From an uncultured Nitrososphaeraceae archaeon (GTDB taxonomy: Archaea; Thermoproteota; Nitrososphaeria; Nitrososphaerales; Nitrososphaeraceae): a stretch of 64,000 nt of DNA. This document shows positions 2,175-26,476 of the stretch, in pieces. The notes below the pieces were generated by a model. It was not told the origin of the DNA, did not search any database, and was given only the letters and a program-made list of their open reading frames with translations. Made by a program: the position numbers and the translations under genes. The stretch covers positions 64,001 to 128,000 of the forward strand of contig CAWGVG010000027.1 in assembly GCA_963825865.1 (NCBI GenBank), written 5' to 3'. Each line of letters begins with the position of its first letter. Within the stretch, counting starts at the first letter, position 1.

Positions 2175-2329
2175 TATTATTATACCATTGATGTAACCCA
2201 GAGAAAGCTATTAGTGTTTGCTACTAGACACACAAAAAAAACACATACACAAATCAGCATCAATCAAGCTCGTTGCTATTCTTTTTCACATTAAAAAGAT
2301 AAGTGGATGGTTGTTTGTTTAACCATTTA

Positions 2330-3057
2330 TCAAGTGCAATTCACGTTACCTGTGAAAGTTGCATGTTCTCCGTCAGCAGTTCTAAATTGTATTGTTACAC
2401 CTGTTCCACATTGTCCTGTGATGGTTGCAGTTGGAGGAACTACTATATCTTCACAGCGTGCTGGAAAAGAACCTGCTGAAAGTTCTTTTCCCGTAATGGT
2501 AAATGAGTTTCCAGTTATTTGTACACTCATCCAAGGTACCTGTTTTGGTAAATGGAAACTCATGAGTTAAGTGAACGTCCACATTGAACTGTCCTTGTAC
2601 TGCGGCACTTGCATTTTGCTGAACAGAAAATGTTATAGATGCGGGTTCAGATACTGTCGCTCTTGGACAAGTGTTTTTCCGTCTCCTTGTCCACTGACCT
2701 GTATTGTTGTCGGTGTTGGAGTTGGAGCAGATGTAACTCCCTCTTCAGTACAAGTTGCGTTTTCGCCTGGGTGTGTGCATATCAGATTTTCACATTCCTG
2801 GTTTGTTGCAGTATCAAACCCACTTGCAGAACCCCTATTCTTGCATTCCTCTATGGTAACTGTGTTGCCATTACCGTTACCACTTCCATTATCTCTTGTC
2901 TTTTTATTATTATCAGCGTGTCCTGGTTTCTTCTGGGGAGCGAGCAAATGCTGTCTGCGTTGTTATTGCAGTTGCTGCAAATTGTTCCTACTACTAATGT
3001 TGCTGCCATGAAGACAGCAACTATTGTTGCATTTCTCTTTGTAGTTGAGTTGTTCAT
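2330..3057 (-). CDS. Secreted modular Cys-rich protein, paralogue 1 (beta-type C-terminal module); frameshifted
   Basis: Joins ORFs 2851..3057 (signal MNNSTTKRNATIVAVFMAATLVVGT), 2633..2947 (CKNRGSASGFD...QECENLICTHPGENATC, PT linker) and 2330..2563. Confidence 0.75.
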
Positions 3058-3079
3058 AATATTTTATCAATAGAAAGTT

Positions 3080-3313
3080 ATCTGTATATTTGAAGTGAGT
3101 AAGTTAATGCTGATTTATCTAATATGATTTAGTGCTGACTTGTTTCGTATAACAATTGAGTATATCAAATGAAGGATACTTTCTAATTTAGCAATTCATA
3201 GTATCATTAGTTATAATGATTCTTCACCAATTGGGCACGAAGTCCAATTACTTCATTATAGTGTGCTAGGTTTTTGGTGGTTTGCATTGGCCAATTTGGC
3301 CAATTTGGCCAAT
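3080..3313. repeat. Conserved upstream block of paralogue 1, ending in (TTGGCCAAT)x3
   Basis: 3080-3196 matches 6291-6407 with 4 mismatches in 117 bp; similarity continues to the triple palindrome at 3287-3313. Confidence 0.9.
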
Positions 3314-3409
3314 TTAGTAGTTTTTGGTTTAAAAAATAACTTTACCAAAATTAGGAACATTATGTGGGAAACATAAAAACAAATAAAGTTTTACTTTTAA
3401 AAACAGAAA

Positions 3410-3434
3410 GGCCGCTCGTGATGTCATAGCGGCC
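3410..3434 (-). terminator. GC-rich hairpin followed by a T-rich tract on the minus strand
   Basis: GGCCGCT...AGCGGCC 7-bp stem, then TTTCTGTTTTT on the minus strand, downstream of 3648..3842. Confidence 0.35.
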
Positions 3435-3647
3435 AAATCTAAAATGTAGAAAGTATCTAGATTAGCCCAGATTGACCGAGCCAAACTAGAGAAAGAATCC
3501 ACTAACTACTATACATATATACAGCAACGACGTTAATTCGGGGGTAGTTCACGCAAAGGTCGATTAGTTGTTGACTTTCCTATAGAATACAAAAAGATAA
3601 AACAGATTGTAAAAGAAAGAAGTTACATAAACTCAGAGTTTAGGTAA

Positions 3648-4075
3648 CTAACCACTCCTAAGCGATTCAAATACATGATCTCCTGGCTTGGAGTTTAGAA
3701 ATCTGTCTATGTCCTGCTCATTAGTATAATCTAATCCAATACTAATCATCACATTAGCCGTTAAACCAACAGCATCCAAACGCTTTTTCCTATCTAAAAA
3801 CAATTCAACAGGTCTGCCATTAGCTCTATCATGAGCATCCATTCTTTCTGCTATCTTTTGTAATCTGTCATCTTATGTCTAATCCTTCTATAAGCCCAAT
3901 CGACACTTACCTTTTTGTTGTCAAGTTTCTCGAAATAGTCTTTTGCGAGTTGATTTCCATTGCTTGCTTGGTTTGTTATGAATTCAGACTTTTTATATTC
4001 ACTATATGGTATACCATATACTCTAGCCTTAGTTCTAAGGATGCAGTCCTCCCAACTTTTGCCAACGTATTTTTT
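3648..4075 (-). pseudogene. Fragmented ORF resembling the HTH/C-terminal part of a ParB-like protein
   Basis: Minus frames give KVGRTAS...KKSEFITNQASNGNQLAKDYFEKLDNKKVSVDWAYRRIRH, then ORF 3648..3842. Confidence 0.35.
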
Positions 4076-4079
4076 TCTT

Positions 4080-4380
4080 AATCGGTTGTTGTTATTATTA
4101 TCTTTCCAGTAAGCATAAAGATATGGACCATGCTTCTCCTCGATACAATCAGGTTTACCGCATTTAATAAATTCCCGATAATGGAATAAAATCTACCTTT
4201 CTTTATCCTTGCTTGACGATAAACAACCAATTAGACGTTTGTTATTACTTAACAGCATTGTAAATGCTATGATTGCCTAATTCTGTAAACTAATGCTTAT
4301 CGCTTTGGATACCTCCTTATTTAAAATCCAATACAGCCTTTGACAAATCATTCCAAAATAATTCTGGATTTAATTCAGAA
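4080..4380 (-). pseudogene. Remnant of a small mobile-element protein with a HGPYLYAYWK motif (DUF6788-like)
   Basis: Minus-strand GKPDCIEEKHGPYLYAYWKD; stops and frameshifts upstream. Confidence 0.4.
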
Positions 4381-4430
4381 AGGTAACAAGTCGTTTACAG
4401 ATAGAGGCAATTAGATCATTTACATAACTC

Positions 4431-4980
4431 TTAACCACCACCCCCTATGAACACTATTCCAGCATTTTTCAGACACTGAATTAGCCCAGCCTGATCGATT
4501 GGTTGTCCTGTTCTTTCTGCAACATCTGTTAAAATTTGCTGAAGTTCCGACTCTCCACGCGGAGATGTAGCACAGAATTGCTCCAAATTCCCTTGTGTTA
4601 CTAGAAATATTTGTTCGGCGTTAAGGAATTTTGTCAAACATTCTTGGCAAGTTAGTTTTGTGGGTGGTGTTGTTGTTGTTGTTCCAACCCCCTCTTGTAC
4701 ACAGGTTGCATTTTCACCTGGGTGAGTACATATCACGTTTTCACATTCTTGCCCTTGGTTGTTATCAAATCCGCTTTGTGATGCTACTTGTTTGCATTTC
4801 TGAATGGTAATTGTATTGCCATTGCCATTGCCATTACCATTACCTTTGTCTCCTTTCTTCGTCTGCGGATAAGCAAATGCTGTTGTTTGTCCTGTTGTTG
4901 TTGCAAATGTCCCTACTACTAGTGTTGCTGCCATAAAGACAGACTACTAACGCTAGAGTTCTCGTTGTTGTGTTGTTCAT
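4431..4980 (-). CDS. Secreted modular Cys-rich protein, paralogue 2 (helical C-terminal module)
   Basis: ATG at 4980 (MNNTTTRTLAL), one frameshift, then MAATLVVGT...CKQVASQSGFD...QECENVICTHPGENATC, T/P linker, TCQECLTKFL...LIQCLKNAG. Confidence 0.8.
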
Positions 4981-5001
4981 ATATATTACAACTTACAATA
5001 T

Positions 5002-5140
5002 TATCTGTATATTTGACTTGGCGAAGTTAATGCTGATTTATATGATATAATTTACTACCAATTTATTCCATATAACTATCAAACATATCAAATGGACTAT
5101 TCTTACTTATTTACCTATTATTGGTAGCATTCAATTATAA
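5002..5140. repeat. Diverged third copy of the upstream block
   Basis: TATCTGTATATTTGACTTG..AAGTTAATGCTGATTTAT...TATAAC...ATATCAAATG aligns with the 3080 and 6291 copies. Confidence 0.75.
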
Positions 5141-5288
5141 CTAGATTCTACTATTGCTAGTCTATAGCTTAGGAAAGTATACCATACCATATTGCATTGC
5201 CAATCAGAATCGCAACAGAATGAAATAGCTGTAATATAAAAAATAGGGAAGGTTGTTGTTGTTGTTTTTTGTTCTGTTCTGTTCTGTA

Positions 5289-5486
5289 TCAAGTAGTAGT
5301 GCATTCCACATTACCTGTGAAAGTTGCATGTTCTCCGTCAGCAGTTGCATATTGTATTGTTACACCTGTTCCACATTGTCCTGTGATGGTAGCACTTACT
5401 GGGGAAACTCCTAGTAATGTTAAAAGCCTTTCAAACCCAGCTAATCCCACGCCCCCTCCAGATAATAGTGCACATGTTTGCTCCAA
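5289..5486 (-). pseudogene. Orphan C-terminal module without signal peptide or constant domain
   Basis: ATITGQCGTGVTIQYATADGEHATFTGNVECT is nearly identical in DNA (5299-5390) to the 3' end of paralogue 1 (2334-2425). Confidence 0.7.
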
Positions 5487-5628
5487 AGCAAACCTTCCCC
5501 GAAAGATGGTTATAAGTTATCAAAATTATCTGAGTGAGGATAACTTGTTGAAACTCATAATAATAAATAAATGGCGTTCTGAAGGAATAATGAGATGAAG
5601 TTTAAAAAATAAGAGTGGGGTCGCTAGG

Positions 5629-6267
5629 CTATCCTGGTATCTCTGTGTTTATAATAGTACAGGTTATGTGTTGGCCTGCAGCTATAGTACTAGGACCACA
5701 ATCACCACTGGTGGAAACAGCAAAATGTTGGGTGGAATGGCCTCAAGTACATTGAAGGAATCCCCTGGCTGCAGTGTAAAAACGACACCATTTCCAATAG
5801 CAGACGTACATGCGAAAGATTGTTGGGGATGGCCAACAGTAAATAAACTTATTGTACAGTCGCTTGGGAGAGAGCAATTGGATCGCAGGCTGACAAACGA
5901 CTTGTTTTACAATTCTTAAGGTTGTTGTGATTGGTTCGGGTGTTGGTGTTGGTGTTGGTGTTGGTGTTGATGTTGGAGTAGATCTAACTCCTTCTTGTGT
6001 ACAAGTTGCATTTTCACCTGGGTGAGTGCATATCACGTTTTGACATTCTTGTTCTGCTGTGTTATCAAATCCACTTACTGTCCCGTCTTGTTTGCATTTC
6101 TGGATGGTAACCGTGTTTCCATCTCTACTATTTTCTTGTGATCCTCCTCTATTCTTCTTTTGATAAGCAAGTGCCGTTTGTGTTGTTGCTGTTGATGCTA
6201 ATGTTCCTACTACTAATGTTGCTGCCATAAAGATAGCAACTATAGCTAAAGTTTTTGTGTTGTTCAT
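5629..6267 (-). CDS. Secreted modular Cys-rich protein, paralogue 3 (prealbumin/SpaA-like C-terminal module); frameshifted
   Basis: ORF 5743..6267 has the constant domain and a (TP)n linker; the shifted frame continues DCTISLFTVG...GQHITCTIINTEIPG* to 5629. Confidence 0.78.
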
Positions 6268-6290
6268 ACGTTACCAAGCAATATGATTTC

Positions 6291-6556
6291 ATCTATATAT
6301 TTGACTTGAGTAAGTTAATGCTGATTTATCTAATATGGTTTAGTGCTGACTTGTTTCGTATAACAATTGAGTATATCAAATGAAGGATACTTTCTAATTT
6401 AGCAATTGACAGTAACCTTTGTTATAATGATTCTTTACCATTTGGACATGATGTCCAATTACATACATACTTTATAATCCACGTTTATCTCTGCATTATA
6501 GTGTGTGCTAGGGTTTTGTGGTTTTTGATTTGGCCAAATTGGCCAAAATGGCCAAT
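6291..6556. repeat. Conserved upstream block of paralogue 3, ending in three TGGCCA palindromes at 9-bp period
   Basis: Matches 3080-3313; TTGGCCAAA TTGGCCAAA ATGGCCAAT at 6530-6556. Confidence 0.9.
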
Positions 6557-6603
6557 ATTAGTTATTGGTGTATCTATGGTTGACTATTCAATCAATCAAT
6601 CAA

Positions 6604-7047
6604 TCAATCGATTAAAGGATCAATATCGTACTTGGTCTTCAAGTCCGAACCTTTTCTAGTTATGTGCATTGCACAGTAACCTTTCTCTATCCACTTTAGA
6701 ATATCTGGTCCTACTGTTTCAGATGCGGTCAACTCAAGTATTTCTCCAGCAGAATCCGAACCTAAATCATGCACATAGAATTTATATCTGTTAACTGGCT
6801 TGTCTGGTTGGCTTTCATATGTAATTCAGCTCTTCTCTCGTTTTGTCTGGAATAATTTGTAGTAGCCTATGATCGCCATCCTTGAACTTGATAAATCTGT
6901 TCGTATTCCTTGAAGATGCTTTCTGGTCCAGTCGTGATCTCATCTCAGATATCTTGCGTTTTGTTTCTTCGCTTAAAACTTGCTTACCACCTGTTATTGT
7001 TGACTTGTTGTATTTGTATTTACACTTGCACTTGTATTTGTTGACAT
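6604..7047 (-). CDS. Putative phage-type single-stranded DNA-binding protein; frameshifted and absent from the ORF track
   Basis: Hand translation: RFIKFKDGDHRLLQII...RYKFYVHDL...LELTAS...ITRKGSDLKTKYDIDP*, resembling gp32-like OB-fold SSBs. Confidence 0.5.
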
Positions 7048-7268
7048 TTAACTCTCAAGCAAGCATGCAAAGTTTACTAATATAGCTTTATCGACTCTTT
7101 ATCATATGCCACAGGATTGGAAGAATCCGAATGGTGTTAGTGGTGGTAAAGCAGCTCGCACAAGCTGAAAAAGCCTCTGATAGGCAAAAAGGGCTAGAAT
7201 CTTTGATATCGTCATATTCAAGCGCAAAGATCTAAGACCAAATAAAGATCGCTTTAAGACAGAATATA

Positions 7269-8599
7269 TTATGTGTGCAGTTTAGTCACGAGATCCTGAA
7301 CTATCTCCTTTTCGATCTGTGTAAGCAAATCTAAATCTGGTCCTATTATTGCCATGGCGGTCATGTTATACAATGAGAACTTGTACCTTTCATCAACTAC
7401 ATCCTCAGTGAGGATGTCTGCATATGAAATAGGTGCATCGTCAAATTTGTTTTTTATATTAGATTTTAATACATAAATGTTAAATCTAACGAATAGACCG
7501 TACGCTTTGGTCTTTTCTAACAGACTGGCTTCTTTTGGAATAATCCAACTGGGTTTATAATCATTGCATTGAACAATAGGAGTATGCCATATAGGTGCAA
7601 AAGATACTTTTGGTTTCTCGTTCAAAAGTCACTAATCTTGTCCATAAAGTAAGAAGGCTCCAATGATATCTCGATAACACTGTGTAGCAATGTTGCTTTT
7701 CTCTTATAATTATGGGTTCAAAGTCGTGTTCATTCAATCCATCTCTTGTAAAGTAAAAATAGTGAATTTCGTTATTGATATGAACCCTTTTTGGGATAAC
7801 ACCAAAGATATTTAATCTCTCTTTGTTTTGAATATTCTCATATCACCTAGTTTCTGTCCTGTGTCTTCTACAATCAAAACGTTGGCTGAGGTAGCATATA
7901 TCATCTTCTGAGTATTTATCAACACCTTAAGAACTTCCATAAGTTCGTTCGAGATATTATTTGCTTCTTCAAAATTGCTTTCTTTTAGTTTATTTATTAA
8001 CTTATACAATTGGCTTTCAATTTCCTGATATATTTCATAATTCAAAGTTTTTTTATCGTATGCTCGTTTAGCAAGTTCAAATAGTAATTTAATATCTTCT
8101 TAACCCTTTTATCATCACTTCTGATTTCTCGTGTTTTTCTTTTAGATCTCGATGTATGTCTGAAAACAACGAAATAATTGATTCACCTGTACCATTAACT
8201 AGATCTTTGTATAATAATGCTAAATCATTCGGTACTGGAAAATTATAGTAGATGTCATTATAGGTATTAGCTTCTTGCGAATCTCTTGGCTGCCATGTTT
8301 CGTATGTAGATAAATACGCAATTGTTTGGTCATAAGCTTTAAGTGATTCTTCGTATAGTTGCTTGGTTTGATAGTCTAGATATCCATGAACGATATAGTT
8401 ACGTATATCATATTTATCTAAAACTCTCATTACATCATCTAAATATCTAAGTGATTCTTCAGATTGTGATAGATGTTTATATGTATACGGACTTGGGATC
8501 TTTTACATCAGAGAATGTATTCAATAATATATGTTTTTTAAACCTTATTCTTGAACGTTTTTTCTTTGATTTTTGTTCTGGTGATATCTGCATTGACAT
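7269..8599 (-). CDS. AT-rich hypothetical, largely helical cargo protein (~440 aa if rejoined)
   Basis: ATG at 8599, next to the stop of the upstream gene; ORFs 8089..8430, 7812..8045 and 7269..7625 appear linked by frameshifts. Confidence 0.5.
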
Positions 8600-8601
8600 G
8601 A

Positions 8602-9244
8602 TTATTCACTCGGAGTGCGGAATTTTGATAATATTAATTCATTATCCTTTTGCATACTCATTTTAAATTTTACAAGGTCTTCGATTACCTTATCCAAGTC
8701 ATTTGGAGTTAACTGGCATTCAACATCATCTATTTCACTTGTTCCTGGATATCTGATTCCAAAAACACATTGAATAACAGGAATTAATCTTTTCTGATCT
8801 TTTGGAGTTGTCAATACTCTGTAATTATTGGTCAAATTAATATAAGTTAAGCGTGGCAATATGGCATTCTCTAATCGGGTTCTTTGATGATAAATGTAGA
8901 ATTCTTCAATTAAATTACGACTTTCCATTATACTAGCTATATTCTCAATTTTTCTAATGTTAGCATCATCGAAACCGTGTGCTGCTTTAAGTCATTCTTG
9001 AAAAGAGTTGCGCTAGATGATGTTGAAAATATGCTTGCCAATTTGTAAAGTGCCATGAAAATGTCTTTACTTAAATTTGAACTCTCTCCGAATATTTTCT
9101 GTACTACTCAGGTTGTGAAAATGAACCATAATATTCGCCTTGTTTGAATTTTTGAAAGATAAAAGACATTACCTTATCTAGAATATCATCAGAAAGCGTT
9201 AAAAGCGAAGTCACCTGTCTCGATAAATCATCGAATGACGACAT
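8602..9244 (-). CDS. Candidate COMMD-like protein (helical N-domain plus COMM-like C-domain); frameshifted
   Basis: Rejoined ~210 aa: MSSFDDLSRQVTSLLTLSDDILDKV...FKNDLK..HGFDDANIRKI...LPRLTYINLTNNYRV...LIPVIQCVFGI...VECQLTPNDLDKVIEDLVKFK. Confidence 0.5.
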
Positions 9245-9296
9245 TTTTGACTATTACTCCAGCCTGACTAATCAATATTACCGATTACGGATACCT

Positions 9297-9482
9297 TTAT
9301 CTATGATCCTTTTGGATATGTCTTGAATTGTTTTGGCAAGCGATTCTGTATTGCCCAAGTCTTTTTCTAAAACGTGGACCTACCTTGATATCTGATATTG
9401 GTAGCATTATTATTTTATTTATTAGATCTCCCAACTCTTTTCCTGTGTCTTTATTCCATGTCTTTCCAGATCTATCTTGCAA
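9297..9482 (-). pseudogene. Truncated ParB N-terminal domain
   Basis: LPISDIKVGPRFRK(D)LGNTESLAKTIQDI is a typical ParB-N start; homology stops at ~9310. Confidence 0.6.
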
Positions 9483-9625
9483 GGATATGCTGGTTTACCT
9501 TGATGACGTAGTACAACATGCTTTTCATAATCTGCTTCGTCATTAGTTTGAAAATCATTACAATAATAACATGAAAATAAGAAATTATTCGTTATTTGGT
9601 CTGACGAATAATTTATTTTATTTTC

Positions 9626-11771
9626 TCAATTGTTTATTGTAACTTCTATACTGTTAGTATGTTTTTCTTCTGATTCGATAGTTATTTCGTCATTTTGAAG
9701 ATAGTCGTTGGAGACACCATTTTTTTCATCAAAATCGTTTTTTGTTTCTGGCTCTTGCTGTTTTTGTGTAATTTTTCCAATATCAACAATTTCTATTGAA
9801 TCTTCACTAGCGATATTGTTACTATGCTGGAAGTAATCTTCGGGATTATTGTAATAAGCATCTACCAATTCGTCTACCGTAACCTCTTGCTCTTTATGAT
9901 TTTTTATTTGCGAAAAAATTGCATGTCTGTCTGAATATCTTAAAAGTGCCTGAATTTCAGAGGTTACATATTGTTTATCAGGATATAATGCAATATTTTC
10001 AACATTTATCCTTGATTGTTTAAATAAGTATTCGTTATTTTTTAGAACGAATAAATCCTTATTTTTCGAACTATCTTCTACTGCTGTTGTCGCTGGTACA
10101 ATAGCAAGAGGATAGAATATTTGTGTTCTTTTGTCTAATTCACTATCAATGCTATCGATATAGCCTTGGTTGACAAGATGATATACGTAGATATCGAGAA
10201 TCTGCTTCTTTGTATAGGATTTTCCGTATATTTCTAACGTCTTTTCGACGAGCTGCTGTGTAGTTAACGCTATTCTCTTTTCGCAAGTAGTGATTTCGTA
10301 CTCGTTTTGGCCTGTACCTTTTGATAGTGATTTTGGAATCTGGGCAATCCTTTTCTTGATATGCTTTTAGAAATACATCGTAGTACCATTCCAGAATATA
10401 TGGCCTTACGCCATTGGCATATTCCATCAGAAATATTGATTCACGTAAATCTTCAAACAATGCAAATAGGATTGTTTGTGGCACAGGATTGCCTTCGTTT
10501 CTAACTACAATCATAGGCCGTCTATCAATATTTATCAACGGAAGCAATGTCAAGAATGCACCAAACCTGTTGGCAGTTATCATATCAAATGCCTTCTCCT
10601 TTGAAAGTAATGGTTTTATCGATTCTCTAAATGGAACAAATACGCTATTCTTGCCAGGTTGTATTCTATCACAGACATAAAGCATTCTCTTCTTTATATC
10701 CTGAATAATTTCTCTAACCTTCTGTTTATCCTGGTCATTCACAATCTTTTCCTGATATGCAAAGTCAGGTAATCCAAACTTGTCAACTGTCAAGATCTAC
10801 AGCATCTACATATTTCTCCACTTTCATCTTTGGGTTTGTAATAATGAACCTTCTCTGGATTTCAGGCCATCTTTGGTAGCGACTGTAGTCTATAGCTTGA
10901 GCAAATATTACAGCAGGCCAGCCTCTTAGAACGTTGGTTTTAGTTTTGATGCCACTATGTTGGGAAGTATCAACGAATTCGTATTCAACCTCATACTTAT
11001 CATGAGATAGCAAAGGCATCAGAGCGTTGAATAACTCTGGCCTTGGAGTATCCAAAAATACCAAAATCTTATGTGATAAATCGATGAGTTTCTTGGCATC
11101 TTTCAATAAATCTTTCTTTTGTTTGGCTAGACTTTTAATTGATCTGGTTGCGACGAGCTTGTTTGAAGCTCTTGTCTATTAGTCTTGTTGCTTAATTTCG
11201 TCTCTTTATCTTCTATCTCTGAATCAATCTCTTCTAATCTGTTATTATAGATTCGTATTCACCTGATTTAGTATTCTTGACTACTAGTCCACCTTGCCTA
11301 TGGAATAACGCTTTATCAGTCATGCCAGCCAAAAACATTACATCCTGTTTAGGAAAATTATCTCCTACCTTGTGAATGACATAACTTTTGCCTTCTCCAG
11401 AAGGTGAGTTGATCGCCAGATTGATAGGATTATTAGTATAGGCACTTAGCATGGTATAACACAGTTGTTTTACCAGCCTGTCTTCTTGCCTTGCCTCCTT
11501 TAGGATTGTGTCAAAACAAAATTGTATGGATTAGGATTATTAATTTCATTTTTGATTTCGTCGTCGTCAAACTCACGGTTCATTTTCGACAGAACTCCTC
11601 ATCGTCGTCCATTTGCAATCGGAGTTTGAAAGATTTGTAAACGTTTGAATTTGCAAAATCTAATAACGCCTGGAGTCGGTCCGTGAATTCGACCTCCTGG
11701 ATTATTTTTTGAATCGACAGATCTTCAGATAAGTTTTTAATTTCCTTAGAATAGTTATCCATTAGAAACAC
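9626..11771 (-). CDS. Large P-loop ATPase, probable replication helicase/primase-associated protein; several frameshifts
   Basis: Walker A NLAINSPSGEGKS, hydrophobic ILVFLD strand, EIQRRF arginine-finger-like motif; five consecutive ORF pieces. Confidence 0.7.
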
Positions 11772-11857
11772 TGTGATTCCTTTGTCAATTGCATCTGGCT
11801 CTGGTTTCTTGGTGTGACTGCGCTTGTGTCTTGGGTTGGAATGGGGTTTGGCTTAGC

Positions 11858-12022
11858 TCACTTCTCCTTCTCACCCTTCTTCTGCTGTTCTTGATTACCA
11901 TGACTTGGATCTTTGCATTGTATGGAGACAGATTCCGTTAGGACATCCGTATAAAAACCTGGACATGGATCGCATAGGCATCTCGTAACTATGATGGTAG
12001 GAGGCTTCTGTTGGATGCTCAA
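11858..12022 (-). CDS. Small Cys/His protein (54 aa), absent from the ORF track
   Basis: TTG start next to the 12025 stop; RCLCDPCPGFY...IQCKDPSH. Confidence 0.5.
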   Translation of the reverse strand: MSIQQKPPTIIVTRCLCDPCPGFYTDVLTESVSIQCKDPSHGNQEQQKKGEKEK

Positions 12023-12024
12023 TA

Positions 12025-12213
12025 TTACTTAGCAGCCTCCTTTTTTTTAAAAATAGTTACAGTTGTTCTGCAGTGGGCACATGTCGCTATGTATGGATTG
12101 CTTCCAGCATAGTTCCAGGTCCATCCACACCTACGGCATGTTATTCGGCGAGCCTCTTTCTGAGGAATTATAACTACAACGTCTTGATCGTTTTCTGGAT
12201 GAAGTTTACACAT
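12025..12213 (-). CDS. Small zinc-ribbon protein
   Basis: CRRCGWTWNY...ATCAHCRTTV (two CxxC pairs). Confidence 0.7.
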   Translation of the reverse strand: MCKLHPENDQDVVVIIPQKEARRITCRRCGWTWNYAGSNPYIATCAHCRTTVTIFKKKEAAK

Positions 12214-12255
12214 TAACAGTAGTTAAGAGATATATGAAAGAAAACAACTATTGTT

Positions 12256-12862
12256 TTGTCCCCTAAATTGCTGTTACGGTTAAGGAACAAAGAGAAAAAT
12301 CTTGGCTTTCCATGTCCTAGATGTGGTAGGGATTTTGGAAGACTAAAGATAATGAAAGAAAAGAGAAAAGGTAGAGCCAAATTAGATCGAATGCAATTAC
12401 CCACTAAAAAACTGGTTGTTGAATATGATGACAGAGGTAATCGTATACGAAGAGTCAGTGGATATTCAAAGAAATATTCATCCCTACAAACACATAAGCG
12501 TCCTTTCTCATTTCGCCAATTTTTGGCACAAAGGGCATGATATATTTCCTGCTAATCCACCTATAAATCCACCACGACGATCGCCAGTATCAGATAACGA
12601 TAGATCTCCTGCAGAAAAAAAACTGATAGAGTCAATGGATCAAAACGTTAAGGCTGTTTCTCTTATAGTCAAGATGTTGCCTGCAATAGCGGAAAAGTAT
12701 CCTTGGGTCAATATACTTGCTGAAGAATGCATACCTCACGTCAACTTCATGACAGACTACTGGCAATCTGCGGTTGATAACAGGTATAGCAGAAGTATGG
12801 TAGAGTGGTATCATATAGCAAAATACGCAGAAGAAAAGAGTGTAATTGGTTCAATATACTAG
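12256..12862 (+). CDS. Hypothetical protein with N-terminal CxxC; frameshifted and probably 3'-truncated
   Basis: ORFs 12256..12540 (FPCPRCG) and 12416..12862; ends within the integrase junction. Confidence 0.5.
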
Positions 12863-13925
12863 ATTTTAGTTTCATAGATTTCTCTGTTAAAGCAGAATGC
12901 CTTCTAATGTAAGGATTAAATGGCTTGGTAAGTAGGTTCTTTATCTTATCTTTGTCTTCATTCGGGACCGTTGGATCTTCCAAAAGCTTAAGGAAAAATT
13001 CTTCCTTATAATACTGATATACCTGGTATAAGCCATTAATCGTAAGTTGTCTTCTACCCATGTTTTGCCTGCCTAAACCTACAAAAAGAGGTGAATTTGG
13101 ATTATTTCTACTAGGATGATTTGATAGCCATTCTTTGATATATGGAATGGATTGAATTAAAGGTATATGCCTGCTACCTGTTTTTCCATTAACCAGAACT
13201 TCTGCGTATTGACTACCGTTAGCGTTTTTAAATACAACATCTTTTATCTTTAGGTTAAGTATTTCATGTGGACGTGCTGATAAGTCTCTGGCCATTGTAT
13301 GATAACATCTATCCCGTTTGTTTGTAACCCACTTCAGAAATAATGAATCGTCTTCCTGTGTCCATAAATCAGATGGCTTGTAGCAGCTTACCTCTTTTCT
13401 CTTTAGCTGAGGAATGTCCATAATGCATTCTGGTTTTCTCTCTTGTATAGATAATTCATTTCTTTTATCAGGATTGGCAACATCAGGATATTGTATCCAT
13501 CTGAAGAATCTAAATAATATGATACGTCTTGTATTATAACTTCCTATCCATTTATGCAATGGGTCATCATTCTCTAGTTTACGGCATTTATCTAAATATA
13601 GTAAAATATCATCTCTTGTCATAATTTTGAACTTCTTTGCAATTCCAAGAGTTTTGGATAATTCAGACAAAAACTGGATTGTAGTTCTTATGGTAGTGAG
13701 TCTAGGATTAATCTCTCTTTTCATTGCTATAATATAATCACAAACTGTCATAGCATTTTCTTTAGATAATCTATACCTATCCTTTAGGATTAATTCGCAA
13801 AACTTGTTAGTAGTAAAACCTTCAGTTGCTAAAGTAATCTTTCTATCCAATTCAATGGAAGTTTCTTCATTCTTGGAAGATGATGCTAATATTTCTACTA
13901 CTGCTTTGTTTGAACGTCTAGACAT
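12747..13925 (-). pseudogene. Tyrosine recombinase/integrase truncated before the catalytic His/Trp and Tyr
   Basis: SARPHEILNLKIKDV, GKTGSRHIPL and PYIRRHSALT are present; after SILNQ (~12845) the expected HxGW...Y is replaced by the antisense of the neighbouring ORF. Confidence 0.8.
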
Positions 13926-14059
13926 AATGACATATGATGTGTAAGGGATTTGTTAATTAATACTTTCTATGAGACAATATAATAGCAAAGAATATTCTAC
14001 TACATTGGACTTGATGCTCATACATACTGCTGCTATCTAGAAAAGGATGAAGAAATATC

Positions 14060-20880: not shown

Positions 20881-23597
20881 TCACCTGCTCCAAAATAATT
20901 CGTCCAAATTTGACTGGCGTGGCTTGCCTAGGATGGATTTAAAATTATAGTTAAGAGATGATAGAAGCTGATCGAAAGTTGCTTCCATAGCCTCAAGATA
21001 TTTTTCTGTATCTATCTCTTCTGCCTTTGCCAGATCTACAGGTTTGACACCATCTCCTGTCTTTGTTTTTACATATGAAATAATATCTCCAGTCTTGATT
21101 TCCTTTCCTATGTCCACCAGTAATTTTGCTGCTTTGATATGCTGAGGTAATCCTTTGTAGCTTTCAACTTCTTTATCTTTGCCATCCAGTGAAGTTGCTT
21201 TGGTACCATTTGTCCTCTTGCCATATTTATCCTGGGGACTTATTTATCATTACGTTAAAGCTGAGGTCTGCTGGTGGTATTCTGCGCAATTCTAAATTCC
21301 TGGCGTTTTCTTGTATAATATTTTTGATCTTTTCTTTGGCAAACTCAAAATCCTTTTCTGAATTCACTTTACTCAAAATATCCAAAATATTGTAGAATGC
21401 ACTCCGTATAAACGGAGGAGTATGTGATTTCTTTCCAGTCAAACCTTTGACATCTACTGTGCCATCATCTAGAACGCCTAGATAATTTTTCTTTAAATCA
21501 CTGAACACCACATAACGATATTGCTTATCTATTTCAAGGTCCACGCCAAGGTTACTTCTTGCCCAACTAGATATTATATCAAGTCTTGCCTCAGAAGGGT
21601 TTTTTAAAAAAAGGGAGTCAGTATCTCCATATATCACATCCATGCCTATTTCTTTACATTTCTCAATTGTCTTTGTTATTGTGGTTCTTCCAATTGCGGC
21701 AGTTGCATCGGCTACTGGCAGGCAATAGAGTGGGAATATCTCTGCTCCCATTACTCCATAACTAGCATTAAGAATTACCTTGATTGCTTGGCTAACTACA
21801 TTATATAGCTGCCGTTCTTCAGAAGTGATTGTTTTGTCTTTGGCTAAGTGTTTGTAGTAATTGACCCTTAAATCGCGCAGCGATCCGATCAAAAGAGAAG
21901 TTAATCCTCTCTTTTCTTTGCATATCCAATGTGTAGTTCCCGGTATCTGCTGGTTGAGATCATTTTTGCAAGATTGATGTGGGCAGTTAACAGTCTCATA
22001 GGAAAGATTATGTACTTTGATAATACTCGGATATAGACTTGCAAAGTCTACCACAACGACATTAAAATGGATACCAAGCGTAGGCTCGACTACTAATCCA
22101 CCTCGATACTTCTTTTCTTTTATTATTGCAGTAGTTGAAGCAGTTCCCTTTGCTTGCAGTTCATCGCGTCTTGGAATCAGCAGGTTTCGTTGGCGATGTT
22201 CATAATATAACATTCCCCTGATCCACTGGTTAACACCAAAGCGTGCAATATCGTCTATAGATAACCTTCCGATTCTTGCAATAACCACGAAAAGTTTCAT
22301 CAACAAATTATCATTGAAACTGGTTAATCTGAAAGTAAGTTCAGCATCTTTAAGGCAATATTGTGCTAGTTTTTGGATTGGCAGCTCGCTGATATCGCCT
22401 TCAAATTCAATTTTGCTATCATTTAGTAGAGCTTCGCAAATAGCCTTAAGTGTATATTCTGAGTATTTGTGACTAAAAGCATAGATTTGTACGGATCTGT
22501 TTTGGAAGGTTCTAAACAAATCAATATGCAGTCCATGTTTTGTTTGAACAGGCTCTGCTTGAGTGCCTCGTTTTATAAAAGTCTCTCTTTTTATTTTGAT
22601 TGGAATTTCATCTTTTGAAATGATCATTTTGCTTATTGGATCAATGCTTGGATCCTGCGATCTCGCATAAAGATATGGAAGATCAAAATCATCACCGTTA
22701 TAGGTAACGATAACTGGATATGAATCTTATAATTTTAAATGCTTTTTGTAAGCAATTCTTTTTCAGTATTGCAAATTTCTGCTTCAACGATTAAAGGAGT
22801 GCCATTATCATGGAATTTGTTTTCTTGTTCTAATACTAGCACTTTTTTGAATCCATCATTTGCGACAAATCCAACCGCAATAACACGCCTATCATGGTCG
22901 TGTGGAGTAGGCATTCTACCTTCTTCAGATTCAACTTCGATATCGACAGAAACCCTCTTCAGATCAGGAATAGGCTGATTGAGAAGCGTTGCCCATCTTG
23001 TAATATATTGTTGGTATTCTTCATTCTTTTCCTTTCCCACCGCCTCTTCGTTTATTTTATTCCATAACAGGTTCTTTAATTCCTGTTGAACTTTATCAGA
23101 GATTTGGTATTCGAAATTGTATAATTTCTTCTCTTTTTCTAATATAATATGCTCCTGGAATTAATCCAGTATCGTAAAGATAATTTTCATGGTATTTTAT
23201 ATCTGCTTCCCATGAAGTGACTTTTTCTCTGATGCTGTTTTCTGTCCCACCAATTGATAGTGGATCAGGAGCAATTATCTTTAGAAGTTCGATCTTTCTT
23301 ATCAGAGATCAGATCTTGTTTGTTAGTACGTTCTATTGTATACTTTTTTTCTTTCTCAATAATCTTTTCAACTGTACTGCTATACTGCATCTTTGTATAG
23401 CAGTAGGGCTTGTGATTCGTTCTGTCACGCCAGAAGTATATAGTGTTATCTTTCAAATCATAGAATTTCAGGTAAACCTTTTGCTCGTCTCCTGAATAGA
23501 TGGCCGACAGTAACAGAGCAGGTCTGTTTTCTGGCAGTTCTTGCAATTCATCAAACATTTTTCTTTTTTCTGACAGAAACTGTTCCTGCTGAGCCAA
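20881..23597 (-). CDS. polB: Family B DNA polymerase; split by frameshifts
   Basis: DIEV exonuclease I, DFASLYPS, KVILNASYG, YGDTDS, KKNY; C-terminal PIP-like QSNLDELF. Confidence 0.95.
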
Positions 23598-25184: not shown

Positions 25185-26476
25185 ATGGGTTATCGATTCA
25201 AAGAACAAGATAGTCATCCCCAACATAAAGAATCAAGAGATGTAGAGAATGTTCTTGTGTTGCAAGGAGGAGGCTCGTTAGGAGCATTTGCGTGTGGGGT
25301 ATTCAAAGCATTAGTAAAAAAGAATGTGAGAATAGACATAGTTGCAGGTACTTCTATAGGGGCTGTAAATGCTGCCATAATTGTTGGAAGCAAAAGTGAC
25401 CATCCTGAAAAAGAGTTGGAAAACTTTTGGATAGAGGTTGCAGAAAGTAGTCCTAATATTATTCCAGATATTTTTGTCCTTGATTATGATAATAACGCTA
25501 GGAAATACGTATCCAAGAAAATATCCGCTCGCTTCGGCTAATGCTGCGATGTTTGGTGTTCCTAAAATGTTTACTCCTGTATGGTGGCGTTGGTTGCCTT
25601 GGTCGCCTTGGAACCAATATGAAGATGATGATGACAATAAGATTTATGATCGCAATAAAAGAGAACAACAAGAACACTACTATGACTTTCTTAACCCAAG
25701 AAATTGGACTTATTTCTATGATCATTCACAACTTGCAAAAACACTTGATAGATACATAGATTATAAAAAGCTCAACCTTGCTGCAACAGAAGAAGAACTA
25801 CCAGGAGTTCTTCGCCTTATAATAACTGCTGTAGATGTGATGACAGCTAGACCGCTCATATTTGACAATGCAAAAATGGAAATAAAAGCAAAACATATTC
25901 TGGCAAGCTCTGGTTATCCGATATATGGATTTCCGTGGATTGAGGTTAAAGATAATGTATATGCATGGGATGGCAGCCTTCTTAGCAATACTCCCGTAAG
26001 AGAAGTTATTGAAGTATCTCCAAGAAATGATAAAAATATCTTTATTGTAGAAAACTACCCTCGGAAAATACAAAGACTTCCATCTAATATGGCAGAAGTT
26101 GAAAGTAGAGCTAAGGATATCATTTTCAGCGATAAGAATATGGATAATATAAAAATATCAAGGCTTATTACCAGACACATCCAGCTTATAGAAAGCTTGT
26201 ACGATATTGTGCAAAAGAAAGTCAGTCCGACTGAGATTGATCCTCATGAGTTGGAAAAAATAGAGTCAGAATATAACACTCTTATCACCAATTATGGAGC
26301 ACAGATAAAATCTGTTACAAGAATAATTAGAAGTGAATTAGAATCACCAAGCATGCTCGCAAAACGCAGACTTTTCCCCTAAAACAATCAAAGAACTAAT
26401 AGCGCAAGGTGAAACCAAGGCTATGGAAAAGTTATCGTATTGTCAGAGTGTTAAATATGACTTTAATGCAAAGTAG
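25185..26476 (+). CDS. Patatin-like phospholipase; frameshifted
   Basis: LQGGGSLG, GTSIG, WDGSL; C-terminal ADFSPKTIKELIAQG in a shifted frame ending 26476. Confidence 0.9.

Follow-up and report, generated by a model that had tools for sequence, protein, structure and literature searches.

The window analysed here is the whole 64,000-nucleotide (nt) stretch of contig CAWGVG010000027.1 (positions 64,001 to 128,000; GenBank assembly GCA_963825865.1) from an uncultured Nitrososphaeraceae archaeon. Its minus strand harbored, at positions 8602-9244, a gene that very probably encodes a COMMD-like protein of approximately 213 amino acids (aa), a member of a small divergent prokaryotic family (208-220 aa) carried as cargo by an integrated mobile element of approximately 7.6 kb. 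A preliminary description of this DNA, made from the letters alone, had proposed a COMMD-like protein at this place, and the proposal was borne out by the fold, by sequence signals that were weak but agreed with one another, and by a dimer prediction: Pfam profiles of COMMD proteins matched the intact homologues, COMMD chains were the top structural matches of the predicted fold, and a dimer was predicted to form through the COMM domains. As the genome possesses the amoA gene and no mcrA gene was found in it, the organism is an ammonia oxidiser of the Nitrososphaerales lineage.

Reconstruction of the COMMD-like gene

The gene lies in three open pieces separated by two changes of frame (Table 1). 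A profile built from 11 full-length homologues was searched against all 1330 stop-to-stop pieces of at least 25 aa in the window, and its three best matches were exactly the three gene pieces, i.e., in order of rank, 8605-8991 (profile positions 90-211, E 1.1e-39), 9107-9250 (positions 8-43, E 0.0011), and 8940-9107 (positions 55-93, E 0.0049), with the fourth-ranked piece at E 0.12. The three pieces were also collinear with the full-length homologues in a MAFFT alignment. Because they are the top three profile matches, stand at the expected positions, and are collinear, 8602-9244 is a single gene of ~213 aa with two frame changes, in which ~40 aa of the middle piece (~9106 to ~8986) would be in use. 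The rejoining of a ~210-aa protein across two frameshifts in the preliminary description was thereby upheld, with the pieces placed in the right order by both profile and alignment. The motif quoted there, an LPRL stretch followed by strands and a QLTPNDLDKVIEDL helix, is present and agrees with the conserved columns of the family (P130, Y141, P155, F176, and Q177 in the numbering of the homologue P0002), the window bearing C-Q-L at the positions where most family members show F-Q-F.

Plain open reading frame (ORF) calling would instead divide this stretch into two or three small genes, such as one for a 108-aa protein (8602-8928) and another for a 46-aa protein (9104-9244), and the public protein collection contains the 108-aa form only. 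Nevertheless, every one of the 11 full-length homologues is a single 208-220-aa chain, the three pieces correspond to consecutive parts of the homologue profile, and the start of the 108-aa ORF would fall in the middle of an HN-domain helix, making separate genes extremely improbable. The independent status of 8930-9244, which the preliminary description had kept in view as an outcome that would undo its interpretation, is contradicted by the same comparison, in which this segment belongs to the ~213-aa gene.

Homologue family and sequence signals of the COMM fold

A phmmer (HMMER) search of the 129-aa C-terminal piece against 1.84 billion representative proteins (E ≤ 0.001) retrieved 13 proteins, comprising the window's own 108-aa ORF, eleven proteins of 208-220 aa, and one 87-aa fragment. 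The piece aligned to residues ~90-210 of the eleven homologues, with P0002 as the closest intact one (E 1e-20, 37% identity), and a word-index protein search with the same piece returned only the window's own 108-aa ORF. The Pfam family COMM_domain (PF07258) matched the C-terminal third of six of the 11 full-length homologues; P0007 scored 25.9 bits against a gathering cut-off of 22.4 (profile positions 2-62 of 64), and the five others, together with the fragment P0012, scored 14-18 bits, below this cut-off. In addition, COMM_HN (PF21672) weakly matched the N-terminal half of three of the 11 homologues, each time below the cut-off, and the matches to the two families stand in the correct N-to-C order. 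A comparison with the COMM domain had been proposed from the outset, and it placed COMM_domain and COMM_HN where they should lie in the intact homologues, with one match above the cut-off. No family for the COMMD-like protein was found in PADLOC, PHROGs, or NCBIfam. The ESM Atlas, taken as a source of leads only, contained unnamed bacterial clusters of ~220 aa at 0.92 and one cluster at 0.84 in which 23% of the members carry COMM_domain.

A conserved tryptophan in the first COMM strand is a hallmark of eukaryotic COMM domains. The absence of this residue, already remarked in the window's protein, extends to the family, in which no tryptophan was found in the first COMM strand and an invariant tyrosine occupies it (Y141 of P0002; NYRV in the window, NYRV or DYRV in the family). 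Eukaryotic COMMD proteins probably bear their tryptophan at the place of this tyrosine, and the family differs from them in this respect. According to the main text of Liu et al. (2026, Nat Commun, published May 2026; PMC13392464), several prokaryotic COMMD-like proteins have few or no tryptophan residues, indicating that this residue is not defining for the prokaryotic group.

Predicted fold and structural matches

The AlphaFold2 model of P0002, computed from the 11-sequence alignment, had a predicted local distance difference test (pLDDT) score of 87.8 and comprised seven helices followed by three strands (E131-145, E151-164, and E171-178) and a 28-residue helix (H180-207). The model of the window's own 129-aa piece (13 sequences, pLDDT 84.6) comprised two helices followed by E47-61, E67-80, E87-94, and H96-124, i.e., the identical COMM topology of three strands and a long helix. 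The helical region followed by a three-strand-plus-helix COMM fold, as described from the sequence, was thus predicted in both models, and each contains the three-stranded antiparallel sheet and extended helix of a COMM domain. An HN domain with COMMD topology was seen in the P0002 model, to which the window's N-terminal pieces are tied by the profile match only.

In a Foldseek search of the Protein Data Bank (PDB) with the P0002 model, all 16 of the matches listed above rank 24 were COMMD or COMMD-like chains, derived from 8p0w, 8f2r, 8esd, 6bp6, and the bacterial COMMD-like octamer 9q6a/9q6c (8p0w_J, E 8e-8; 9q6a_A, template modelling (TM) score 0.55), and the first unrelated match listed had an E value of 0.047 and a probability of 0.12. 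With the window's own piece, all 14 of the matches listed above rank 23 were COMMD chains (6bp6, TMt 0.82). The AlphaFold and Foldseek comparison foreseen in the preliminary description therefore led to human COMMD1-10 chains, the COMM and HN domains of COMMD9, and the bacterial COMMD-like octamer. Alignment with VIA-align gave the same picture, with the best match to 9q6a_A (Z 11.4, 198 of 214 residues, residues 1-207), followed by the COMMD9 COMM domain (6bp6, Z 8.6, root-mean-square deviation (rmsd) 1.9) and the COMMD9 HN domain (4oe9, chain 4oe9_B; Z 5.5, 105 residues).

The same VIA-align search also returned Pur-alpha (3nm7/3n8b, Z 5.3), Cpn0803 (3q9d, Z 4.8), PC4 (Z 4.2), and Whirly (Z 3.3), raising the question of a convergent look-alike, i.e., a nucleic-acid-binding protein of the Pur-alpha/Whirly/PC4 type or an element protein of the CT584/Cpn0803 type rather than a COMMD homologue. 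A DNA-binding protein would fit a mobile element, and the superficial similarity of these folds is remarked in the main text of PMC13392464. However, COMMD and COMMD-like chains scored clearly higher (Z 8.0-11.4) with both domains covered, the HN domain on its own matched that of COMMD9, the model has three strands in place of the four in a PUR repeat, and Pfam COMM_domain and COMM_HN match by sequence, so that a look-alike is very unlikely.

The likeness to eukaryotic COMMD1-10 of Commander/CCC (8p0w, 8f2r, 8esd, 6bp6, 4oe9; PF07258, PF21672) extends to the two-domain fold and to the COMM domain itself, which in P0002 superposes on that of COMMD9 with an rmsd of 1.9-2.5 Å, and P0007, by passing the Pfam COMM_domain cut-off, links the family to these proteins by sequence as well. 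Identity in the structural alignments is low (10-19%), as it likewise is between prokaryotic COMMD-like proteins and eukaryotic COMMDs. The family further differs from the eukaryotic proteins in being a single gene rather than ten paralogues, in the invariant tyrosine of its first strand, and in its setting, the window's organism being without endosomes.

Predicted COMM dimer and putative ring

The homodimer prediction for P0002 reached a score of 0.59 (three runs, 0.56-0.61) compared with 0.00 for the best of three controls; for comparison, this mark was attained by 20 of 30 proteins whose solved structures pair one chain with itself and by one of 23 solved as single chains. At least 86% of the contacts were common to the runs, the pLDDT of the partner was at least 81, and the predicted interface was symmetric and confined to residues 113-208, i.e., to the COMM domain. 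The model thus suggests a symmetric dimer with interlocked COMM domains, in line with the strand-swapped dimer that had been named beforehand as a supporting sign. By analogy with bacterial and archaeal relatives, which have been solved as rings, such dimers may close into a homo-octameric or homo-decameric scaffold ring.

In its main text, PMC13392464 describes 361 prokaryotic COMMD-like proteins, reports solved homo-octamers and homo-decamers (the example 9q6a/9q6c is from a Flavobacteriaceae bacterium), states their function as open, and gives no CCDC22, CCDC93, or Retriever partners as known in prokaryotes. The window family resembles these proteins in size (~210 aa), in the single gene, and in the HN plus COMM architecture; 9q6a_A is the best structural match of P0002, and the COMM-mediated homodimer predicted for P0002 would be a further likeness. 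It differs from 9q6a in sequence, as the family's profile reached neither this chain nor any other chain in the PDB. In contrast to anything in the main text of PMC13392464, the window's gene is cargo of an integrase element; that main text does not mention mobile, integrase, transpos-, plasmid, or protease, and two of its supplementary files might hold context tables. Dataset S1 of that study has 111 archaeal entries, and among the eight taxids resolved from it, one entry (A0A7J2YAG3, taxid 2268197) is a "Nitrososphaerales archaeon", so the taxon is not new for COMMD-like proteins. The idea of COMMD-like proteins in prokaryotes is no longer new since that publication, and the present gene is a new divergent member.

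Frame changes as assembly errors or signs of decay

The two frame changes are somewhat more likely to be indel errors of the assembly than real mutations, since four of the five class-I aminoacyl-tRNA synthetase loci of the genome are split between frames (Table 1) and a comparable break at 8100, in the downstream neighbour of the gene, is absent elsewhere. A contig from run X3 has one base fewer at 8100, by which the 113-aa and 95-aa pieces of this neighbour become one frame of ~205 aa, and P0015, a 161-aa protein from another assembly, is continuous across the junction while carrying a different shift further upstream. No family matched the neighbour at 7815-8499; weak matches to fibrillarin-like (E 6e-4) and CARF_RelE (E 8e-4) models are probably due to chance.

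If the frameshifts were instead real mutations in a decaying element, the gene would be a dead relic and no COMMD-like protein would be made in the organism. The occurrence of two frame changes within 640 nt would fit such a relic, as would the adjacent helicase gene in at least three pieces, the window's element copy without the PrimPol domain of the copy on contig C46, and the fragmentary state of many integrase paralogues. Contigs from three studies also agree fully with the window across their overlaps with the gene (8574-8724 and 8754-8975), and neither break lies inside these ranges. Conversely, essential class-I aminoacyl-tRNA synthetases split at four of five loci would be intolerable for a living cell, the 5-Mb genome is only 81.8% complete although its contigs are long, and neither the X3 contig nor P0015 shows the break at 8100. 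The relic is thus a possibility of some substance, though on balance the less likely one. The assembly of this genome is clearly indel-prone or decayed, and, given the split synthetase loci, any frameshift in it needs independent reads before a pseudogene is called. Two further split genes were seen in the window, i.e., a family-B DNA polymerase (PolB) in three ORFs (21230-23597) and a patatin-like phospholipase in two overlapping ORFs (25185-26379), in each case through indel errors or decay.

The integrated mobile element and its cargo

The preliminary description had regarded the gene as cargo of an archaeal mobile element, and this view is supported by an integrase, helicase remnants, conserved element ends, paralogous element copies, and a cargo confined to this copy. 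The intact tyrosine integrase occupies one end of the element, 3.5 kb upstream of the COMMD-like gene and on the same strand; its scores against Pfam Phage_integrase (19.8 bits, cut-off 27.1) and NCBIfam XerA (19 bits, cut-off 220) are below the respective cut-offs, and 26 other contigs of the genome carry paralogues, many in fragmentary form. The interval from the integrase to the COMMD-like gene contains the remnants of a zinc-ribbon gene and of a P-loop helicase, which recur beside integrase copies elsewhere. The helicase, which matched no Pfam family, has paralogues on five contigs (C46, C15, C6, C62, and C45); that on C46 matches window positions 11527-10813 (E 1.5e-36), and a 178-aa ORF on the same contig matches 10667-10326. 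The C46 copy has the order integrase, zinc-ribbon (DUF5817-like, E 1.9e-4, below the cut-off; the first of the two small genes in Table 1), PrimPol (PF09250, 23.8 bits against a cut-off of 22.8), and helicase, whereas the window's copy gave no PrimPol match.

The opposite, non-integrase end of the element is conserved as well, with blastn matches on several contigs, and on C6 an integrase copy of the same orientation is found 10-11 kb away from it. Homology among the integrase copies stops at 13983-14002. A 10-nt direct repeat, ATACTTTCTA, is a weak candidate for an attachment (att) or terminal repeat, and 10-mers nearly identical to it stand at both ends of the C6 copy; no convincing att repeat of at least 11 nt was found between the two element ends. 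The element would accordingly measure ~7.6 kb, from about 6387 to 13969, with boundaries that are provisional. The ORFs at 7272-9868, the COMMD-like gene among them, are single-copy in the genome, and guanine-cytosine (GC) content is lowest in this part of the window (0.31 compared with 0.354). These observations support the COMMD-like gene as a unique cargo of an integrase/helicase element that has many copies in the genome, and, as no other copy carries this cargo, the most likely origin of the gene is horizontal acquisition. A tblastn search of phage and plasmid collections with the homologue P0003 gave no match.

We take the element to be akin to archaeal integrative plasmid-like elements of the pRN1 type, which it resembles in the tyrosine integrase at its end, the zinc-ribbon, the PrimPol-helicase (complete in the C46 copy), the variable cargo, and the many copies per genome. 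It differs from them in that the window's copy has no PrimPol match and a helicase in pieces, and in that its ends are marked by the 10-nt candidate repeat only, with no tRNA target. The genome (G000) was also found to be very rich in mobile-element genes, including 24 matches to family-B DNA polymerases that are mostly fragmentary, and this wealth may explain a size that is unusually large for the lineage (5 Mb at 82% completeness).

An acidic 80-aa ORF (9626-9868) immediately upstream of the COMMD-like gene weakly matched Cas4 models (PF01930, E 0.006; PADLOC Cas4b, E 0.0015), below any cut-off. Elsewhere in the window, positions 2300-6570 contain genes for small Thr/Pro-rich, probably secreted proteins in three repeats (families D1-D5), to which dozens of related copies on many contigs are 70-92% identical at the DNA level.

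A second COMMD-like lineage in ammonia-oxidising archaea

When 61 relatives were searched in six frames with the single piece as query, the matches were at chance level only (best E 0.008), and those that were read proved to be MarR regulators and an unrelated ORF. With the family profile, at least four matches covering the COMM domain were obtained among 401 genomes of the class, all of them in another family (f13), and none was listed in the 78 genomes of the window's own family. Among 401 genomes of the phylum, none was listed beyond spurious matches to the HN region, i.e., ORFs of 368-403 aa, one of which (L016) was read and shows a CxxxCxxC motif of the radical-SAM type; ORFs of this kind turned up in the class search as well. 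These counts are lower bounds, as the COMMD-like ORFs of G389 and G246 were absent from the profile listing. The f13 proteins constitute a separate lineage; tblastn revealed no similarity between them and the window's gene.

In G291, G281, G389, and G246, the divergent COMMD-like gene heads a tightly packed, translationally coupled operon, in which it is followed by a gene for a ~150-190-aa protein and by a gene for a retropepsin-like aspartic protease. The protease matched PF13650 (E ~1e-9 to 1e-10), PF13975, and PF00077 in G291, G281, and G342, where it was checked against Pfam; its recognition in G389, G246, G258, and G340 relies on a small profile built from these three. It also weakly matched the PADLOC candidate-defence models PDC-M08B (E 5.7e-5). 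The operon varies among genomes, with a DDE transposase truncating the COMMD-like gene on its 5' side in G342 and a fused, shortened COMMD-like form preceding the protease in G258 and G340. The middle gene has no family and occurs also in genomes without a listed COMMD-like gene (14 of 401 genomes). Within 10 kb of four annotated f13 loci, IS66 and IS110 transposases, HicA, ParB, or a DNA methylase were found, as counted without a background-frequency control. The window's downstream genes showed no similarity to the second and protease genes of these operons. A further COMMD-like locus of an ammonia oxidiser (L027, G330:C2:1403500-1423499) lies in a 20-kb stretch with 67% GC, a DNA methylase, and many ORFs without families, where the downstream genes are unlike the protease operon; the stretch looks like a foreign island.

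Table 1. Coordinates of the COMMD-like gene, its element, and related loci
Feature	Position	Strand	Details
N-terminal piece of COMMD-like gene	9107-9244	-	46 aa, ATG at 9244; first HN-domain helices
Middle piece of COMMD-like gene	8940-9107	-	56 aa open in second frame; central HN helices
C-terminal piece of COMMD-like gene	8602-8991	-	129 aa open (8605-8991) and stop 8602-8604; last two HN helices and COMM domain
Frame break 1	9104-9110	-	Stop codons of both frames abut; read from the sequence, only a 1-nt change joins the frames
Frame break 2	8940-8991	-	Inside a 52-nt overlap with both frames open; near 8985-8990 by alignment
Downstream neighbour	7815-8499	-	Split at 8100 into 113-aa and 95-aa pieces
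P-loop helicase remnants	10152-11771	-	In several frames; Walker A motif GEGKS
Two small element-gene remnants	11897-12144	-	tblastn of C46 ORFs, E 7e-11 and 2.5e-7
Tyrosine integrase, intact	12750-13925	-	392 aa; phrog_1 integrase, E 1.3e-8
Conserved non-integrase element end	6387-7089		blastn matches in C6, C21 (three places), and C33
Direct repeat ATACTTTCTA, copy 1	6387-6396	+	10 nt; candidate att/terminal repeat, weak; starts with the C6 homology
Direct repeat ATACTTTCTA, copy 2	13960-13969	+	10 nt; near the limit of paralogue homology
Split class-I aminoacyl-tRNA synthetase loci (G000)	C15:61925-64862, C8:88323-91565, C3:105331-107568, C50:9838-12225		
Protease-operon loci of ammonia oxidisers	L024:8930-10381, L025:8931-10382, L026:9903-11186, L035:3429-4910, L039:3523-5244		Also L036 and L037

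Weighing of the assignment and its meaning

Several points weigh against the reading of a COMMD-like protein carried by this element. At the sequence level, the window's own pieces match no Pfam family, even at E ≤ 1, and profiles from two alignments of the family find no COMMD chain in the PDB; membership in the COMMD group is drawn from matches below threshold, one homologue match above it, and structures predicted from small alignments (11-13 sequences). At the structural level, the overall TM score to human COMMDs is low (0.32-0.40), as the two domains are placed differently relative to each other, and the predicted dimer may reflect the model's memory of solved COMMD dimers, in which case it speaks for likeness and not as independent proof. 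As for the locus, the element boundaries depend on one 10-nt repeat and paralogue homology, the gene may truly be dead, both breaks lying outside the independent contigs, and the loss of the PrimPol part from the element's replication gene speaks for real decay.

Taking the gene as COMMD-like cargo, the following arrangement may be envisaged. The variable cargo part of the element encodes the ~213-aa protein, two copies of which may pair through their COMM domains into the modelled symmetric dimer, and these dimers could, as in the solved relatives, assemble into a homo-octameric or homo-decameric scaffold ring. The element itself has the tyrosine integrase and a decayed helicase replication gene, and elements of its family are present many times over in this ammonia-oxidising archaeon; the COMMD-like gene was most likely brought in by horizontal transfer. 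Our best guess, held with low confidence, is that the ring scaffold works for the element, or in a conflict between element and host, and not in core host physiology.

With this locus, the COMMD-like proteins gain a family divergent in sequence, which has 12 relatives among the 1.84 billion representatives and is invisible to a sequence search of the PDB. Its remote homology was recovered by a reader from the raw sequence alone, where the literature says that a structure-based search is needed. The genomic contexts are also new, i.e., unique cargo of an integrative element for the window's gene and a conserved retropepsin-like-protease operon in transposon-rich regions for the f13 lineage, neither association being found in the main text of PMC13392464. 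Since the window's copy rides an integrase/helicase element and the protease operon of f13 adjoins transposases, HicA, ParB, or a DNA methylase, we tentatively suggest, with more doubt than confidence, that COMMD-like rings in ammonia-oxidising archaea are horizontally spread accessory genes of mobile elements or islands, employed in element-host conflict or maintenance. If true, this would provide the first functional handle on prokaryotic COMMD-like proteins and a concrete example of the mobility by which early eukaryotes have been proposed to acquire a COMMD ancestor.

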